Below, one piece after another: positions 36,001 to 45,000 of a stretch of DNA of 64,000 bases. The stretch covers positions 960,001 through 1,024,000 of the forward strand of contig CAWHDP010000002.1 in the NCBI GenBank assembly GCA_963828125.1, given 5' to 3'. A program made the position numbers. Position 1 is the first letter of the stretch. Every line of letters begins with the position of its first letter. The stretch is from an uncultured Chlamydiae bacterium. GTDB taxonomy: Bacteria > Chlamydiota > Chlamydiia > Chlamydiales > SM23-39.

Positions 36001-39000
36001 AAACAATTCATAGACTCGATAAGAGTTTGTAACCCCCAATTGCCCATAGCTGATATTTTTAAAAATCCGGCATGGAATATATCCGACCCGTTTCTGCCAT
36101 TCTCCGACAATTGCGGGAGCTAAATAAGCAGAAGCGATCCATTGTTGATGCCGATTCTCATCAATCCCCGTTCCTGAGGGCTGAGGCGCAATGAAAGGGA
36201 TCCCGTTTTCTTGGCATGCAGCCCGAAAAGGGTTGATCTCGGTGCAATTGCCAAACACTCCTTCTCCTATTGTGCCTATCCAATAAACAGCTCTCTCTTT
36301 TTTCACATGAGGTAAATTTTGCTTGTTCATCTCTATTTCATGAGGAAGTAAGTGAGTGGCCCAAGGCATAAATATCCCCTTATCGACCAGATGGAAATAA
36401 ATGCACGGCTCCGCTCTCACCAAATTCGGTCTCGTCAATACGTCATCTGTATAGACCTGGATGTAACACTGCTTTAATCCCTGGTATTTGGTAGATAAGC
36501 AATTATGAGTGAGATAAATGGCGTCTTCGCGAAGGGGAATTTTTTGATCCACTTGCCCTTCCGTTAGGAACAAGGCGTTTGAGAAATCAAAACCTGAAAT
36601 ATCGTCTTCGTTGTCAAGCCAATAAGTAGGGTATCCTAAGTATTGAAAAGCGCGAAAAAAACCGTTGTGAACATAGGAATGTGTGTGCGTATGAAGTTTA
36701 TGGCCCCAAATCACCACTTTTTCAAAACCAACTCCTACCGTCTGCCAACAAAGCAACACGGCTACAATAGCCCTACAAAAAAAGCGATTCACGCCAAACC
36801 CCTCTAAAAAAGATCGGATTGTAGCAATCGCAAAAAATAGAGTCAATCATTTAATTTAATATCGTCCAGAGGGGCGCCGATTGGGAATTTGGATTCCCAA
36901 AAAAATCCTTCATCAGTAAACTTTGTCCAAAATATGGGGGTTCATGAGGTTTTTGCTGCTCGCTTTTTTGTTCGTGACTGACCTTTCTTGCCAGCCTTTA
37001 GAGAACGGCCTAAAAGTGCTTCATCTCACTTTTCATCGCGGTTGCGCGACTGATATTGAAGCGGTTTCTAAAAAACTCTCATTGGATTTAACGACTTGGT
37101 ATATCCCAGATTTGCCCCCCTATTTTTTTGATGAATTATCCCAAGGGTGCGCTCTCTATAATATGGGGCACGATCGCGCTGAAAGAATATGGAATAAACA
37201 TAGGAAATATTTCGAATCATTCGATGTGATTTTAACTTCCGATACAGCGCCATTAAGTCGGATATTTCTACAGAATCAATGGGGAAAACCCCTTATTATT
37301 TGGGTTTGCAACCGATTCGATTATTATGACGCTGCCAACCTCGATTGTGATTTTCCCGATCCAGAGTATTACAATCTCTTTTCTCAAGCAACTACGCAAA
37401 AAAATGTGGCTGTCATAGCTTATACCGAAATTGAACACATTTACGCTCAATCGAAAAATATCTATTTGGGAAATTTAACAATTCAGCCAAGCGGCGCTTA
37501 TGCTTCAGAATGGAGCCGCTCCTCTATTCCTCAATATATCTTAAAAGAAGAGACATTCTTCCTCCCCCCTTATCATAATGAAACAGTATTTTTGAATCTG
37601 TCTGAACAGTGTACAGAGCTAGAGATTAGAAACTATTGCGGCCGCTACAACGGACCTATGGATCTGAGAGATTTCAAAGGAGTGATTCACATCCCTTACG
37701 CCTGGTCCAATTTAGCGTTCTTTGAAAATCTCCATTTAGGGATTCCTTATTTTATACCAAGCGAAGCCCTTATGTTATCCCTGATATCGAGCGGGGCTTA
37801 TTTTCGAGACCCCCAGTTCGCCGAAAAATTCTTGAATGTGTCTGAATGGTATTCAGATGCATACAGCCCTTTCATTGTCTATTTTGACTCGTGGAATGAC
37901 CTTATCGTCAAACTCTCTACTTATGAATATCAAGGGAATAAGCAAAAGATATTAGATTTAGCAAAAAAGCATGAGGAGAAAATTTTTTCCTCATGGCAAA
38001 CTGTGTTTCATCAGCTATGCCAGAGAAAGCTGTGAAAATTCTCATTTTATTGACTGCGATTCAGTTCAGCTATCTTGACACGTTATTGGCCGATGACGGT
38101 ATCACCAAAAGTAGAATTGAAGCCCATTTGTTTCCCTACAAGGATTTTCTGGAATGGGGAACCTACGAGGGCTTCGACTCGACCCAATATGCCTTTAAAC
38201 CGAAATCCAGATACGAAACATTTAAAACGGCTTTTGAACTGATTGAAGCCATGGATCATCCAACCATCGTAGAACTCGGAACGAGTCGCAGCTTTAATCA
38301 CGGCGGGCTGATTGGATGTAATTCAGATGATATTAGTTATTGGATGCCGGAGGATCCTGCTACATGGGATTGGGGTGCTGGATTTTTTACACGCATGGCA
38401 GCCACGGCGCTAGGACATAAAGAGATAGATATCCATACGGTCGATATCTGCGACTCTCACATCCAGCGCTGCAAGGTGATGACAAAAGAGTTCCCTTGTA
38501 TCCAATACCACGTTTCCGATTCGGTCGCCTTTTTAAAAACATGCAATTTTCCTCAGAAGATTCACCTGCTTTATCTCGATACAGGCGATATGACTCCCAT
38601 AGAGTTTACAGCTCGTTTGCAATTGGAAGAGGCGAAAGTGATTGTTGCCAGAGACCTGATTCTTGAGGGGGGATATATTTTGATTGACGATGTAAAAAAT
38701 CAGACCCCCCAAAAATTTGGAGCCGCCTCAAAGTTGGGCAAGTCACAATACTCCCTCCCCTTTTTACTTGAAAATGGATTTGAACTTGTGATGGATGAGT
38801 ATCAGGCGCTCCTACGAAAAAAAGATAAAAATCATTTTTGATCCAGTCTTTGGTACGGAGGTTTAGAGCGAATGAAGACCTCTAGATCCCTTTGCAGCTG
38901 AGGATCTACCTTATTGTCGTTGATCGGATTGGACATGTTATACACATAGGTAATTTCCGGAATAAAAGCGTGTCGTTCCCCCGCCATTTCGATCATAGGA

Positions 39001-42000: not shown

Positions 42001-45000
42001 CGTTTGTAAGGCTGCTTCACATTAATTCCCCGCACCCGAGTCAATTGTGTGATGCGAGTATGCGCAATTGCCGAATTCTAAGCAAAACGGATCGATCTGA
42101 AAGGACGCCGAAAATGACTCAAGAATCGGCTTCCGCTGGACATTGGCCATTTCCAGAAAATAGCTCTTGATCAAATTCGGCTATTTAACACATACTCCTT
42201 CTTTTTATTTATATAGAGGGCGACTCGTGCTTCATCTCAAAAAAATCTGGGTTTTCTTGCTTGCTTTTCTCCCTCTGTTTTTTACTACGGCTGGAGAAAA
42301 GGGAAACGTTGGACTTTTAGTTGTCGCTACAGGGAAATACATCTCCTTCGTCCATCCACTCATCGAATCGGCGAGGAAACACTTCTGCCGCAACCATCGG
42401 GTTACCTATTTTGTCTTTACCGACCAGGAGTTGGATCCCCCCGAAGATGTAGTGCGCATCGATCAACGTCGCTTGGGCTGGCCTTATGACACGATGATGC
42501 GCTACCAGATGTACCTCGATCATTGGGAGAAATTGTCGAAACAAGACTACCTCTTTGCTTGCGACGCCGATATGTTATTTGTAGGTGATGTGGGAGATGA
42601 AATCCTCGGCAAACGGGTTGCTACTCTACACCCCGGCTTCGTGGGGAAAAGGGGCTCCTATGAGACCAACTCCCGATCGAAAGCCTACATTGGCGCAAAG
42701 GAAGGGAGCTGTTACTTCGCAGGGGGCTTTTATGGAGGCGAACGGGACTCTTTTTTGCATATTCTTACAACAAATATGGAGCACATTCAAGACGACCTAA
42801 AGCGGGGGATTATTGCCGTTTGGCATGACGAGAGCCACTGGAATCGCTATTGCATCGATTTCCCCCCGACCCTTGTTTTAACGCCTTCCTATTGTTACCC
42901 GGAAAGGTGGAGCTTACCTTATGCAAAAAAACTGATCGCCCTGGACAAAGATCATGCTGCGTTCCGGAATTGAGTGGTTATATAAGATTTTCTGTTTATT
43001 GATCCCGTCGGCTCCATTTTCTCACATTCCAGAAAAACCGATGGTGATCGTGATTGCCTCATATAATAACGAAAGGTGGGTCGAAGAGAATTTAAAGTCT
43101 GTCTTTATGCAAGACTATTCGAACTATCGGGTCATTTACATAGATGATGCATCGACAGATAGGACAGCAGATCTCGCGGCAGCCCTGATTAAAGAGAGAG
43201 GGGAAGAATCTCGCTGTACATTCATCCGCAATCATATCCGAAAAGGGGGGCTCTGCAATCTCTATGAAGCTGTATCTCATTGCGCAGATGAGGAGATCAT
43301 TGTGAATGTAGATGGAGATGATTGGCTTGCCAATCCCGATGTGTTAAAAATAGTCAATAAAACCTACTCCCAGCAAGATATCTGGCTCACCCATGGTACG
43401 ATGATTGAATATCCTAAAAATGTTCTCGGATGGTCCATTCCCATCCCGAAAAAAATTATAAAAAAAATGGCTTTCAGAACATATCGATGTCCTTCGCACT
43501 TAAAGACATTTTACGCATGGTTGTTTAAGAAAATTGATGTGGAAGATCTAAAGATTGGGGGAGAATTTTTCCCTATGACTTGGGATCAAGCCATGATGTT
43601 TCCGATGCTGGAGATGGCAGGCGATCGCCACGCCTTCATCAAAGAGACTCTTTATGTCTATAATATGACCAATCCACTCAGCGACAATCGGGTGAATGCA
43701 CAATTACAAAGAGATCTGGAAAAATGGATCAGATCAAAACCGAGCTATGACAAACTTCGGGAAGCTCCCCGATGAAATGGATCATGAGCCTTGTTATAGC
43801 GGGTTTATTATCCTGTCATTTGCAAAGCACTTCTCCATTTGTCACAGCCGAATTAATGGGACAACTAGGCAACCAGCTATTCATCATAGCCGCTACCGTA
43901 AGCCTTGCCTTAGATCATGGAGCGACTCCGATATTTCCCGATCTGACTCGGAACAAGATGTATGACATTCCTCTGAACTATGAAAGGCTGTTCCATTCTT
44001 TGCCTGCGCTATTGCCAAAATCTGTCAGTTTTATTTACAAAGAGCCCCGTTTCTCATACCAAGCGATCCCCTATCGGCCGAACATGAAACTGTCTGGATA
44101 TTTTCAGTCGGAGAAATACTTCTCCAATCACAAGCAAGAGATTTTAGAACTTTTCGCCCCTCCTGTTGACGTGACGGCCTATCTATCTCTCCATTACGGA
44201 GATATTTTAGAGCATCCGATGACCGTTTCTGTGCATGTGCGCTTTTATCATGAAGACCCAACAGGCCAAGCCCATCCCACATGTCGCCGGGACTACTTTG
44301 AAAAAGCTATGGAATATTTCCCAAATGACGCCCTCTTTGTCGTTTTTTCCAACCAAATGAAGGAGTGCAAGAACCTTTTATCAGCCATCCCTAAAAACCT
44401 TCGATTCATAGAGGGGGAAGATCACTTTTGCGATCTGTACTTAATGAGTCTTTGCAAGCACGCCATCATTGCCAACTCTAGTTTTTCCTGGTGGGGGGCC
44501 TACCTCAATCGGAACCCAGCCAAGCAAGTGATTGCGCCCAAACTCTGGTTCAACCCGCGCTATTTAACGGACACCGGAGACCTGCTTCCAGAAGGATGGA
44601 TTCAAATCTGAGACTGATTTTTTTATTAATCACTTACAATCAACATATTGCGACTTTAATCCACAAAAACAAACATAAAGAAATCAACATTTACATACAC
44701 ACATATATACAAATAAATAATTTTAAATTATAATATTAGTTATAATGGGCATGCAAGAAATAAATGGAAATGGAAACTGGGCCACTTATGCCGTTCAGGA
44801 ACAGAAAAGTTTTTGGGGGAGGCATAAAGTTAAGATCCTGACCGGAGCGGCTGTAGTGGGAGGGATCACTTCAATCGCGCTCGCGGCCCTGTGTTGGCCT
44901 GCCGTTTTTGGATGCATTGGCACTTGGGTTATGGCTCATGGAATTGCGTTAGCCACATTGTCCATCGCCGCTAAGATTGGAATGGTTGTAGGGGTAGGAG

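Follow-up and report, generated by a model that had tools for sequence, protein, structure and literature searches.

A cluster of sugar-chain enzymes in the genome of an uncultured chlamydial bacterium raises the question of where such enzymes work, inside the cytoplasm or beyond the inner membrane, and on whose nucleotide sugars. The cluster lies in a 64,000-nucleotide stretch of contig CAWHDP010000002.1, referred to here as the window. A genome-wide survey's note had described hydrophobic N-termini on its GT2, GT6 and GT11 proteins and had read them as retained Golgi signal-anchors of horizontally acquired enzymes that act outside the cytoplasm on host nucleotide sugars and PAPS. The hydrophobic N-termini are borne out, more strongly than first stated, with open reading frames (ORFs) and families in agreement; the Golgi ancestry, as discussed below, is not. 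In the window, N-terminal export signals are present on GT6, GT11, one family 2 enzyme (GT2a) and four unnamed neighbours (A527, B342, C370 and D282), all of which are positive in our rule-based test of the cluster proteins, whereas none is seen on the GT4 next to them, on two epimerases or on GalE (rule-negative: GT4, the SDR epimerase and GalE).

The cluster enzymes and their N-termini

Signals were called with a permissive sequence rule of our own, which 516 of the 2020 crude ORFs of the genome pass (25.5%) and which mislabels strand 1 of Rossmann-like folds as signal; the contrast between families rests equally on conservation among homologues. The cluster signals begin with a K/R n-region (net charge +1 to +2), continue with a hydrophobic core of 8-14 residues and end in small residues at -3/-1; the catalytic domain starts 2-8 residues past that site, with no stem between. 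Family-wide, the core has a median length of 10 residues (range 8-17 in GT6 and 8-19 in GT11), and the mean charge of the n-region is +1.5 in GT6 and +1.8 in GT11, with 0.0 and -0.3, respectively, in the 15 residues after the core. These N-termini are probably bacterial Sec-type signal peptides with a putative cleavage site, and, since the n-region is positive and the residues past the core are neutral or acidic, the catalytic domains are predicted to be exported. Two cautions of the survey, namely mis-called starts and an uncleaved anchor holding the domain on the cytoplasmic face, have been checked: the start-codon context of GT6, GT11 and GT2a indicates that the hydrophobic N-termini are translated, and the charge before rather than after the core speaks for exported domains.

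GT6 (42227..42973, + strand; 248 aa; PF03414, 152.6 bits) is a DXD-type member of the blood-group A/B-synthase family. Within its longest ORF (42167-42973, +) it starts at GTG 42227, with AGAGGG upstream, and the sole later start, a TTG 10 codons downstream, still falls within the hydrophobic run. The predicted signal peptide spans residues 1-23 and the domain begins at about residue 27; the DXD and the Glu in W-H-D-E-S are kept and invariant, with D113, D115 and E202 invariant or nearly so among homologues. BoGT6a, a solved cytoplasmic enzyme (4ayj; E 4e-43), aligns from its residue 3 with query residue 28, so that the GT6 domain directly abuts the signal, while the match to the human ABO transferase (E 2.5e-39) begins only at residue 115 of the 354-residue chain. 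The tail, transmembrane helix and stem of the ABO enzyme are thus all missing, which, with the short cores, the -3/-1 site and the domain following so closely, argues against a retained Golgi signal-anchor; nor does horizontal acquisition of a Golgi-type GT6 fare better, given that the nearest solved relative is bacterial and that the family spans 2588 representative clusters, many of them without any extension. Among the GT6 homologues with an extension, 114 of 115 pass our rule, 89/115 have A/G/S at domain -3 and 82/115 have L/V/A/I at domain -5. A Cys pair is found in 101 of 139 signal-bearing GT6 proteins and in 0 of 32 signal-less ones, which have L/F/M there, and would be compatible with a disulfide formed in an oxidising compartment. 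GT2-GT6 fusion proteins also occur.

GT11 (43772..44611, +; 279 aa; PF01531, 78.9 bits), of the alpha-1,2-fucosyltransferase family, has an ATG that overlaps the stop of the upstream GT2b (ATGA), and the next start that would clear the hydrophobic run, M29, would remove strand 1 of the domain. Its N-terminus is a signal peptide or, possibly, a lipoprotein signal (L-L-S-C, residues 12-15), a lipobox-like N-terminus being found in 8 of 120 family members; the extension is absent in 12 of 116 homologues, and 93 of the 104 that have it pass the rule. The family 2 enzymes are paralogues. GT2a (38832..39641, - strand; PF00535, 56 bits; ORF 38832-39659) starts at ATG 39641, preceded by a strong ribosome-binding site, GAGGGAGAGG, and 69 of 74 homologues adjoining GT6 are signal-like. 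GT2b (42954..43775, +; PF00535, 74 bits) has an ambiguous N-terminus and is rule-negative: its h-region is weak, a -3/-1 site is missing, and codon 30 offers an alternative ATG. At the same time, 41 of 46 GT2b-type homologues at other loci are signal-like.

The unnamed neighbours include two unclassified glycosyltransferase-like proteins of predicted GT-B fold, B342 and C370, both with signal peptides and with no match in Pfam or NCBIfam profile searches. B342 (35818..36792, -) probably starts at a GTG, the 19th codon of its longest ORF (35818-36846), and gives an AF2 model (pLDDT 89.5, pTM 0.86) that Foldseek places near the GT-B enzymes EXTL3, Gtf3, AviGT4, WaaG and TreT (E 1e-6 to 1e-4, TM 0.4-0.56), and C370 (36944..38035, +; ATG at codon 8 of ORF 36923-38035; pLDDT 83.9) comes near BshA, TreT, GtfA and a kitacinnamycin glycosyltransferase (E about 1e-6 to 1e-5). 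D282 (38017..38841, +) has no Pfam match at E 0.01 and resembles class I SAM-methyltransferases of Methyltransf_24 type (atlas features 0.97, structure TM 0.64-0.80). Homologues of these three are signal-like in 15/16, 8/8 and 8/8 cases, respectively. A527 (34251..35828, -; 525 aa; core residues 8-21) weakly resembles heavy-metal-associated proteins over residues 396-463 (CopZ/HMA-type matches, E 5e-5 to 9e-4) and has, as a lead only, a possible class I methyltransferase-like N-domain (atlas 0.94-0.95, mostly unnamed clusters); 7 of 80 loci have an A527 homologue near GT6, 6 of the 7 being signal-like.

The signal-less members are the GT4-type glycosyltransferase (39793..41061, +; PF00534, 121 bits), which is linked to GT6 in only 3 of 80 loci and whose homologues are signal-like in 0 of 2 cases, an SDR-family NDP-sugar epimerase/dehydratase (41040..42044, -; PF01370, 222 bits; no equivalog at its cut-off in the NCBIfam search) and the UDP-glucose 4-epimerase GalE (45795..46841, -; TIGR01179, 393 bits, over cut-off). 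A small phosphoglycosyl transferase (46775..47401, -; PF02397, 208.7 bits from residue 10) adjoins GT6 in 0 of 80 loci; the hydrophobic segment at its N-terminus is a usual feature of the Bac_transf family and was rejected as a signal peptide.

Distribution across families and relatives

Elsewhere in this genome, a signal-like extension is found on GT25 (4/4), sulfotransferase-family proteins (5/5), GT17 (1/1), GT92 (1/1), GT61 (1/2) and GT90 (1/1), the last resembling a transmembrane anchor, positively charged on either side. One GT25 shows its signal only from an internal ATG, which explains its low score in the survey's note, and in three of the four genes an internal ATG coincides with the start of the domain. 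Collagen-like proteins with signals sit among the signal-bearing GT25 genes, and a Wzx-like flippase adjoins the GT17 gene. By contrast, 0 of 11 GT4 proteins are signal-like at their likely start (a twelfth is a fragment; one passes the rule only when read from a TTG further upstream, and there on strand 1 of the fold), and by eye 0 of 6 GT9 proteins are, two being rule-positive on strand 1 of the domain. The selectivity of hydrophobic N-termini for certain enzyme families is supported.

A hydrophobic N-terminal extension is present in 78 of 80 GT6 genome loci spanning Chlamydiota, Candidatus Dependentiae and small-genome MAGs, 69 of which pass our rule; homologue counts come from similarity-ranked lists and represent one or a few clades rather than independent events. 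In GT6, GT11 and the neighbour families the signal segment diverges freely in sequence and keeps its character. Signals extend in relatives to nucleotide-sugar enzymes: a Gmd (TIGR01472, 561 bits, above cut-off, matching from residue 31), two Fcl proteins (480 and 472 bits, slightly below the cut-off of 500) and a GalE (417 bits, matching from residue 33). Among the best 31 Gmd matches in 401 chlamydial genomes, the extension is read from ATG in 19, only from GTG/TTG in 6 and not at all in 6; the chlamydial Fcl matches comprise 8 with a signal from ATG, 1 from GTG, 1 doubtful, 4 without and 1 fragment.

Donor supply and parallels in known systems

In this 95%-complete genome the search for gmd and fcl orthologues gave nothing better than generic SDRs at 23-27% identity, and fucose-salvage enzymes were not found either; this lack of a GDP-fucose source fits a host donor. 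Host PAPS, which the survey had also invoked, is not required, since cysD and cysN are encoded along with an APS kinase, which bears a 19-residue signal ahead of its Pfam match; the standalone APS kinases of nine other chlamydial genomes have signals too, whereas Sat-CysC fusion forms are without. No nucleotide-sugar exporter or importer was identified in the genome, nor any eukaryote-type nucleotide-sugar transporter, the sole EamA protein scoring 23-27 bits against Nuc_sug_transp. Each of the 9 genomes tested in which GT6 bears a signal has NTT/TLC nucleotide transporters, while the one tested genome with a signal-less GT6 and 14 control genomes have none. GalE, the SDR epimerase and ManC (encoded elsewhere in the genome) have no signals, which indicates that UDP-Gal/GalNAc and GDP-Man are made in the bacterium's own cytoplasm, a supply that would suit cytoplasmic glycosyltransferases and speaks against export. 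Exported Fcl would likewise need NADPH, and exported APS kinase ATP, outside the cytoplasm, a provision that is unproven and weighs on the same side.

Lst of Neisseria gonorrhoeae belongs to family GT52. It is a sialyltransferase of the outer membrane whose donor is host CMP-NANA, and thus a Leloir enzyme outside the cytoplasm fed by a host nucleotide sugar that the bacterium cannot make (PMC4324315); it differs from the present case as a single enzyme of another family in an extracellular pathogen, whereas here there are multi-enzyme modules, which in relatives even include nucleotide-sugar converting enzymes. The glycogen synthase of Chlamydia trachomatis offers Leloir-type synthesis in the inclusion lumen from host UDP-glucose, delivered through a host SLC35 transporter (PMC4829429), although its glycogen enzymes travel by type 3 secretion and ours carry Sec-type signals and comprise glycan-tailoring transferases, sulfotransferases and methyltransferases. 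PaGT6 of Parachlamydia acanthamoebae shares with the window GT6 a clade of small, metal-dependent prokaryotic enzymes that bear DXD; the window GT6, which retains the DXD motif and catalytic Glu, is likely its orthologue, judging from the clade and from 62% identity to a Protochlamydia protein. Those parts of the account that describe PaGT6 speak of a 'minimal catalytic domain' and mention neither signal peptide nor working site (PMC3516806). BoGT6a of Bacteroides ovatus and the WbnI-type GT6/GT11 O-antigen enzymes of E. coli O86 have the same fold and family but carry NXN in place of DXD, possess a membrane-binding domain at the C-terminus, lack any extension at the N-terminus and act on undecaprenyl-linked units in the cytoplasm (PMC3516806). 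The vertebrate GT6 enzymes (ABO transferases, alpha3GalT) and FUT1/2 share the DXD, catalytic residues and a predicted location outside the cytosol, as well as, judging from PaGT6, the donor and acceptor type, but are type II membrane proteins with cytosolic tail, transmembrane helix and stem (PMC3516806), where the window proteins have a short, cleavable-type signal abutting the domain.

Where the enzymes may act

The reading that we favour, at a probability of roughly 0.55, is a Leloir-type glycan-tailoring module outside the cytoplasm that works on host-derived nucleotides. GT6, GT11, GT2a, B342, C370, D282 and A527 would be made with Sec-type signals and leave the cytoplasm, signal peptidase I probably cutting most of them and GT11 possibly being lipidated, for the periplasm, the cell surface or the host-vacuole lumen. 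There the GT2 enzymes, together with the new GT-B-fold pair B342 and C370, would extend a glycan, GT11 would place alpha-1,2-fucose on terminal galactose, and GT6 would then add alpha-1,3-GalNAc (or Gal) to give an H/A-like cap, with methylation possibly by D282. In E. coli O86, the same GT11-then-GT6 order gives H and then A/B epitopes, and an A/H-like product is plausible here. The donors (UDP-sugars, GDP-fucose and SAM), not made in that compartment, would be host-derived and arrive by the route that feeds the nucleotide importers. Of the survey's proposal of work outside the cytoplasm, then, the location is retained, on the charge arrangement, and the Golgi-anchor origin is dropped.

The same exported enzymes might instead be released beyond the envelope, by type II secretion or vesicles, and remodel host glycoconjugates rather than the bacterial surface, either on the lumen side of the vacuole membrane or later in the host secretory pathway. 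We consider this rather unlikely, although terminal Gal and H-antigen, on which GT11 and GT6 act, are typical luminal glycans of eukaryotes, PaGT6 takes H-trisaccharide and 2'-fucosyllactose (PMC3516806), secretion of enzymes into the inclusion lumen has a precedent (PMC4829429) and the module in relatives is unlinked to Und-PP machinery, as the scarcity of GT4 and phosphoglycosyl transferase at GT6 loci indicates. The lipoprotein-type signals of some GT11 proteins argue for envelope retention, the collagen-like proteins amid the GT25 genes suggest bacterial acceptors, and a secretion-system signal is not readable from sequence.

The GT6 and GT11 enzymes of E. coli O86 and Bacteroides are cytoplasmic, and BoGT6a does without an extension, which lends some weight to uncleaved anchors with catalysis at the cytoplasmic face of the inner membrane, where the bacterium's own nucleotide sugars would extend an undecaprenyl-linked glycan, as in O-antigen or LOS. 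The cytoplasmic GalE, epimerase, GT4 and phosphoglycosyl transferase of the same locus, of which the last two count against export, the flippase beside GT17 and the anchor-like GT90 point the same way. Yet the 8-14-residue cores fall short of a membrane span, positive charge precedes them, the small-residue site is conserved immediately ahead of the domain, soluble Gmd, Fcl, GalE and APS kinase would have no apparent need of anchors, and no route to GDP-fucose was found in this genome, so that we regard such anchoring as improbable. Very improbable, in our estimate, is that the proteins are exported glycan- or nucleotide-binding non-transferases, or that the extensions are annotation or start-codon artefacts: the alternative starts of GT2b and of three GT25 genes would remove extensions, but the catalytic motifs of GT6 are kept, Gmd exceeds its equivalog cut-off, the Parachlamydia orthologue shows activity (PMC3516806), no GT6 or GT11 start clears the hydrophobic run without truncating the domain, and textbook signals are encoded upstream of the domains in hundreds of independent assemblies.

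On the favoured reading of an exported module, a soil chlamydia, its relatives and another intracellular bacterial group put export signals on activated-sugar enzymes that are normally cytoplasmic, which suggests that blood-group-like sugar chains may be built outside the bacterial cytoplasm from host building blocks.

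Gene cluster and signal-like N-termini

Thirteen genes occupy positions 34251-47401 of the window, which is chlamydial and belongs to a genome of 2.37 Mb (95.4% complete). Four of them, A527, B342, C370 and D282 (34251..38841), fall into no Pfam family, and they are followed by GT2a (38832..39641, minus strand), a GT4, an SDR epimerase, GT6 (42227..42973, plus strand; PF03414, 152.6 bits against a cut-off of 25, residues 45-264), GT2b (42954..43775, plus strand), GT11 (43772..44611, plus strand; PF01531, 78.9 bits against a cut-off of 23.9) and GalE (45795..46841, minus strand; TIGR01179, 393 bits). 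The set is completed by a small phosphoglycosyl transferase and an unrelated membrane/repeat protein of 356 aa (44745-45815, plus strand); in the latter, a bilobed hydrophobic stretch of about 60 residues, Inc-like, precedes some 26 pentapeptide repeats in tandem (P-R/P-E-A-T) and a globular C-terminal part, and Pfam and NCBIfam scans of the protein gave no match. Elsewhere in the window, inspection by eye picked out a fragment resembling a group II intron maturase, a transposase-like ORF and T3SS genes (22914-23363, 25882-27738, 53768-58567), the T3SS-type genes at 53.7-58.6 kb being SctU-, SctV- and CopN-like together with a chaperone. The window DNA occurs in seven sequencing runs, all soil, marine or freshwater metagenomes, and no RNA runs containing it are listed.

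The GT6 and GT11 proteins carry the motifs of their families. In an alignment of 40 GT6 sequences, D113 of the DXD motif is invariant and D115 nearly so, W199, H200, D201, E202 and S203 (W-H-D-E-S) are invariant or nearly so, and the DXD and catalytic Glu motifs align with those of solved GT6 structures. GT11 has G-x-L-G-N-Q, which we take to be the N-terminal motif of glycosyltransferase family 11, at residues 30-35, and the motif recurs in 116 of the best 120 of its 3403 homologues; a comparison of GT11 with solved structures gave no match at E 1e-3. The AlphaFold models of B342 and C370 (pLDDT 89.5 and 83.9) match solved GT-B glycosyltransferases (Foldseek E 1e-6 to 1e-4, TM 0.4-0.57), and both are therefore predicted to be GT-B-fold proteins with two Rossmann-like domains and no assigned sequence family. 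D282 resembles Methyltransf_24-type SAM methyltransferases (ESM Atlas, features 0.97, TM 0.64-0.80), and for A527 the family and atlas comparisons provided leads only.

N-termini were judged by a rule of our own, which asks for a best 8-residue hydropathy of at least 2.0, a core of 7-20 residues starting within 30 residues, a non-negative n-region charge, and small residues at -3/-1 without proline. This rule is permissive, since 516 of 2020 crude ORFs (25.5%) pass it and the first strand of Rossmann-like folds is mislabelled by it, and taking the first ATG as start may miss or create extensions. Within the window it was passed by A527, B342, C370, D282, GT2a, GT6 and GT11 and failed by GT4, the SDR epimerase and GalE, the N-terminus of GT2b being ambiguous. 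The start codons were read directly: GT6 begins at GTG 42227 behind AGAGGG, and its sole later start codon ahead of the domain still lies within the hydrophobic run; in GT11 the ATG and the GT2b stop codon overlap, and the earliest GT11 start that avoids the hydrophobic run would cost the first strand of the domain; ATG 39641, with a strong ribosome-binding site ahead, is the start of GT2a. From the signal-like N-termini and the family and fold assignments, the locus would encode at least six exported Leloir-type transferases and one exported methyltransferase-like protein, adjoined by a cytoplasmic gene set.

The anatomy of these N-termini is that predicted for a Sec-type signal of signal peptidase I, with a positively charged n-region, an h-region inside the range of 7-15 residues and small uncharged residues at -3/-1 all present. 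Hydrophobic cores measure 8-14 residues in the window proteins, with a median of 10 in both the GT6 and the GT11 family, and the mean charge is +1.5 (GT6) and +1.8 (GT11) before the core and 0.0 and -0.3 in the 15 residues past it. A, G or S stands three residues before the first conserved strand of GT6 in 89 of 115 sequences and L, V, A or I five before it in 82 of 115, which is the -1/-3 pattern of signal peptidase I. The genome-wide survey's note had proposed that horizontally acquired Golgi-type enzymes kept their signal-anchor, an uncleaved type II segment that would comprise about 17-25 residues of transmembrane helix and a stem of tens of residues. The domain begins a median of 7-8 residues past the core, so that no stem is present, and the human ABO transferase aligns only from residue 115 of 354, its tail, transmembrane segment and stem region having no counterpart in the window GT6; the short cores, the placement of charge before the core, the missing stem and this alignment do not support a retained anchor. 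A recent Golgi origin of GT6 also finds no support, given that its best solved relative is bacterial (4ayj, residue 3 of which aligns to query residue 28) and that the family, at 2588 representative clusters (E 1e-3), includes many short forms without extension, as well as some fused to GT2. A lipoprotein reading was rejected for the GT6 family as a whole, a lipobox occurring in only 1 of 120 and 1 of 150 sequences; residues 12-15 of GT11 read L-L-S-C, and a lipobox-like pattern is found in 8 of 120 homologues, close relatives having S or F instead of the Cys.

Conservation in relatives and the genes around GT6

The counts that follow come from similarity-ranked sets of related sequences, and are therefore clade-bound and do not represent independent events. 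Among the best 120 of 1104 GT6 homologues (E 1e-3), the domain motif is present in 119 and one is a fragment; an extension of at least 15 residues is present in 115, of which 114 pass the rule, and four have stubs of 8-11 residues. For GT11, 104 of the best 120 homologues have an extension, 93 of these passing the rule, and 12 have a short extension or none. The signal segments diverge freely in sequence, and the domains are 50-84% identical. A Cys pair, C54/C209 (window positions ~42386 and ~42851), occurs in 101 of 139 signal-bearing GT6 proteins and in none of 32 signal-less ones, which have L, F or M instead; the pair may form a disulfide. Cluster look-up of 20 signal-less and signal-bearing GT6 representatives returned an organism name for one only (Simkaniaceae).

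Contigs restricted to one genome per species hold 503 loci that encode a GT6 relative, of which the best 80 were taken. These are labelled Parachlamydiaceae, Simkaniaceae, Rhabdochlamydiaceae and other Chlamydiota, Candidatus Dependentiae/Babeliales (including one complete genome of 1.22 Mb), "Verrucomicrobiota", "Pseudomonadota" and unclassified MAGs, together with one Desulfocapsaceae locus, which has the sole GT6 without an extension. At 69 of the 80 loci GT6 is rule-positive, at nine more it has a hydrophobic extension by eye, and at one it is a broken copy beside an intact, signal-bearing one. Within 4 kb of GT6 at these 80 loci, the families of GT2a and GT2b appear at 52 and 33 loci, often in 2-4 copies, GT11 at 19, B342 at 15, C370 at nine, D282 at eight, A527 at seven, GT4 at three, GalE-like genes at two and the phosphoglycosyl transferase at none. 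With the rule applied from the first ATG of each frame, these neighbours are signal-like in 69 of 74 (GT2a), 41 of 46 (GT2b), 15 of 16 (B342), 8 of 8 (C370), 8 of 8 (D282), 6 of 7 (A527), 14 of 19 (GT11) and 0 of 2 (GT4) cases. Fusions of a GT2a/b-type domain with GT6 were also seen (representatives P0247, P0249 and P0271, 511-535 aa), in keeping with the two genes lying side by side almost everywhere. At loci L022 and L058, in two small genomes (1.1-1.2 Mb; one carries the label Dependentiae), nearly all ORFs surrounding GT6 have signal-like N-termini, among them members of unnamed 290-340-aa families that both loci share.

Among the 80 loci are some whose SDR gene adjoining GT6 encodes a donor-making enzyme with a signal-like extension: Gmd (TIGR01472, 561 bits, with the match starting at residue 31), Fcl (NF047922, 480 and 472 bits, slightly short of the cut-off of 500, match from residue 24) or GalE (417 bits, match from residue 33). 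With this Gmd as query, 159 of 401 chlamydial genomes gave a match, the genome of the window not being one of them; the 31 matches in the 30 loci listed comprise 19 ATG-started signal-like forms, six that are so from GTG or TTG only, and six canonical forms without extension. Fcl in the same 30 listed loci has the extension from ATG in eight cases and from GTG in one, is doubtful in one, lacks it in four and is a fragment in one. Standalone APS kinases with signals are encoded in nine further chlamydial genomes, and the Sat-CysC fusions have none.

Other clusters of the genome and the supply of donors

Signal-like N-termini extend to other clusters of the same genome. All four GT25 proteins have an extension, one of them only from an internal ATG, which accounts for the low hydropathy score that the survey had given one of the four; all five sulfotransferase-family proteins are signal-like, as are GT17, GT92, two GT2-TPR, STELLO-like, Nucleotid_trans and NodZ-like proteins, several Methyltransf_24 proteins and one of two GT61 proteins, and GT90 has what looks like a real anchor. 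At C2:1232001-1266000 (stretches L102 and L103), three collagen triple-helix repeat proteins of 626-680 aa (PF01391, E 1e-46 to 1e-55), of which two or more carry signals, are surrounded by signal-bearing GT25 (four), GT92, GT2-TPR (two), STELLO-like (two) and Methyltransf_24 genes, and this looks like a set of exported collagen-like proteins plus exported enzymes that modify them. At C2:1356001-1376000 (L104), a cysD-cysN-MFS-cysC row adjoins five signal-bearing sulfotransferase-family genes; the APS kinase has a 19-residue signal ahead of its Pfam match, and cysD and cysN have none. The same stretch holds Nucleotid_trans, NodZ-like and Glyco_trans_1_2-like genes, the last encoding a protein to which B342 shows no similarity, and an AdoMet-decarboxylase-family ORF with a signal-like N-terminus (L104:3192-3623). 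A signal-bearing GT17 at C2:1473046-1475551 (L105:5046-7551) adjoins genes for a Protochlamydia-type outer membrane protein and a Wzx-like polysaccharide flippase. As to the usual cytoplasmic enzymes of the genome, none of 11 GT4 proteins is signal-like at its likely start, a further GT4 place being a fragment, and one GT4 is rule-positive only at an upstream TTG, on strand 1. None of six GT9 proteins is signal-like by eye, and the two that pass the rule do so on strand 1. At the start chosen for each, ManC, CysD, CysN and the two copies of GalE are negative; it takes an alternative start for CysD, ManC or one GT9 gene to pass the rule.

Tblastn of this 95.4%-complete genome found no gmd or fcl orthologue, the best hits being generic SDRs at 23-27% identity, and the fucose-salvage family PF07959 had no match there, which leaves an alpha-1,2-fucosyltransferase-type enzyme with no detectable endogenous donor. 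With a ManC-like gene and two GalE genes the genome can make UDP-Gal and GDP-Man, and a lack of endogenous donor synthesis, the mark of a host-fed transferase, was found for GDP-fucose only. Chlamydiae take up ATP and other host nucleotides through the inner membrane, so that nucleotides must cross the periplasm and nucleotide-dependent chemistry there is conceivable. NTT/TLC nucleotide transporters are encoded in this genome and in all eight other tested genomes with a signal-bearing GT6, four of them 1.1-1.5-Mb MAGs labelled Pseudomonadota, and are absent from the 3.8-Mb Desulfocapsaceae genome and from 14 control genomes. The search for a eukaryote-type nucleotide-sugar transporter gave a single genome match to PF04142/PF03151 (27 and 25.7 bits), which was set aside as an EamA-family protein (C2:756763-757698; EamA 126.7, TPT 28.6 and Nuc_sug_transp 23.3 bits).

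Location of the enzymes and its meaning

We consider that the window enzymes work outside the cytoplasm, with a probability of about 0.55; export itself is considerably more secure. After Sec export and cleavage their site of action would be the periplasm, the cell surface or the vacuole lumen, where the GT2 and GT-B enzymes would extend a glycan, GT11 would add alpha-1,2-Fuc and GT6 alpha-1,3-GalNAc or Gal, and D282 may methylate. The specificity for GalNAc and the H antigen is borrowed from the Parachlamydia enzyme, whose retaining alpha-1,3-Gal/GalNAc transfer to fucosylated galactose is described in PMC3516806; for the window GT6 this activity is a prediction. Candidate acceptors are a flipped Und-PP-linked glycan begun by the cytoplasmic phosphoglycosyl transferase and GT4, LOS, surface proteins and glycans of the host vacuole. 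If the enzymes were instead released beyond the envelope, they would act on host glycans, which we hold to be improbable. Somewhat less probable still is that the hydrophobic N-termini anchor the proteins at the cytoplasmic face, a reading that draws on the capacity of the genome to make UDP-Gal and GDP-Man in the cytoplasm and that has to be set beside the short cores and the peptidase pattern ahead of the GT6 domain. That the proteins are non-catalytic or the extensions artefacts seems very improbable; the catalytic motifs of GT6 and the start codons of GT6 and GT11 speak against it.

In textbook bacterial glycan synthesis, nucleotide-sugar chemistry is all cytoplasmic and lipid-linked donors are used outside. 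The exceptions known to us each consist of one enzyme, Lst of the gonococcus and GlgA of chlamydiae. Lst is placed in the outer membrane with host CMP-NANA as donor (PMC4324315), and the C. trachomatis glycogen synthase is secreted to the inclusion lumen, where it is supplied with host UDP-glucose via SLC35D2 (PMC4829429). Unlike these single-enzyme precedents, whole modules are predicted here, and it is from signal peptides only that we infer an extracytoplasmic, host-fed setting of the Lst or GlgA kind. In the openly available article texts searched, no description was found of signal peptides on GT6, GT11, GT25, Gmd, Fcl, CysC or sulfotransferases from either chlamydiae or Dependentiae.

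More tentatively, and with the odds somewhat against it, obligate intracellular bacteria that associate with protists, from no fewer than two phyla (Chlamydiota and Dependentiae), may run a Golgi-like factory outside the cytoplasm. It would occupy the periplasm, the vacuole lumen or both, and host nucleotides would be open to its metabolism, since such bacteria live by nucleotide import. Exported Gmd and Fcl would turn host GDP-mannose into GDP-fucose, exported GalE would epimerise UDP-sugars, and exported APS kinase would form PAPS from exported APS and host ATP; we know of no demonstration of the NADPH or ATP outside the cytoplasm that exported Fcl or CysC would need. GT2, GT6, GT11, GT17, GT25, GT92 and the two new GT-B families would carry out the glycosylation, and surface glycans and collagen-like proteins would be glycosylated, sulfated and methylated to give eukaryote-like epitopes such as H/A.

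If this is true, energy-parasitic bacteria would have in their periplasm or vacuole a biosynthetic compartment of a new kind, which would explain eukaryote-like glycans (blood-group-like caps and glycosylated collagen-like proteins) in reduced genomes without donor synthesis. Signal-bearing versions of cytoplasmic enzymes would then serve as a sequence marker for an energy-parasitic lifestyle, the catalogue of glycosyltransferases would gain two unclassified, predicted GT-B-fold families (B342 and C370), and testable predictions would follow on the supply of host nucleotide sugars to pathogen vacuoles.
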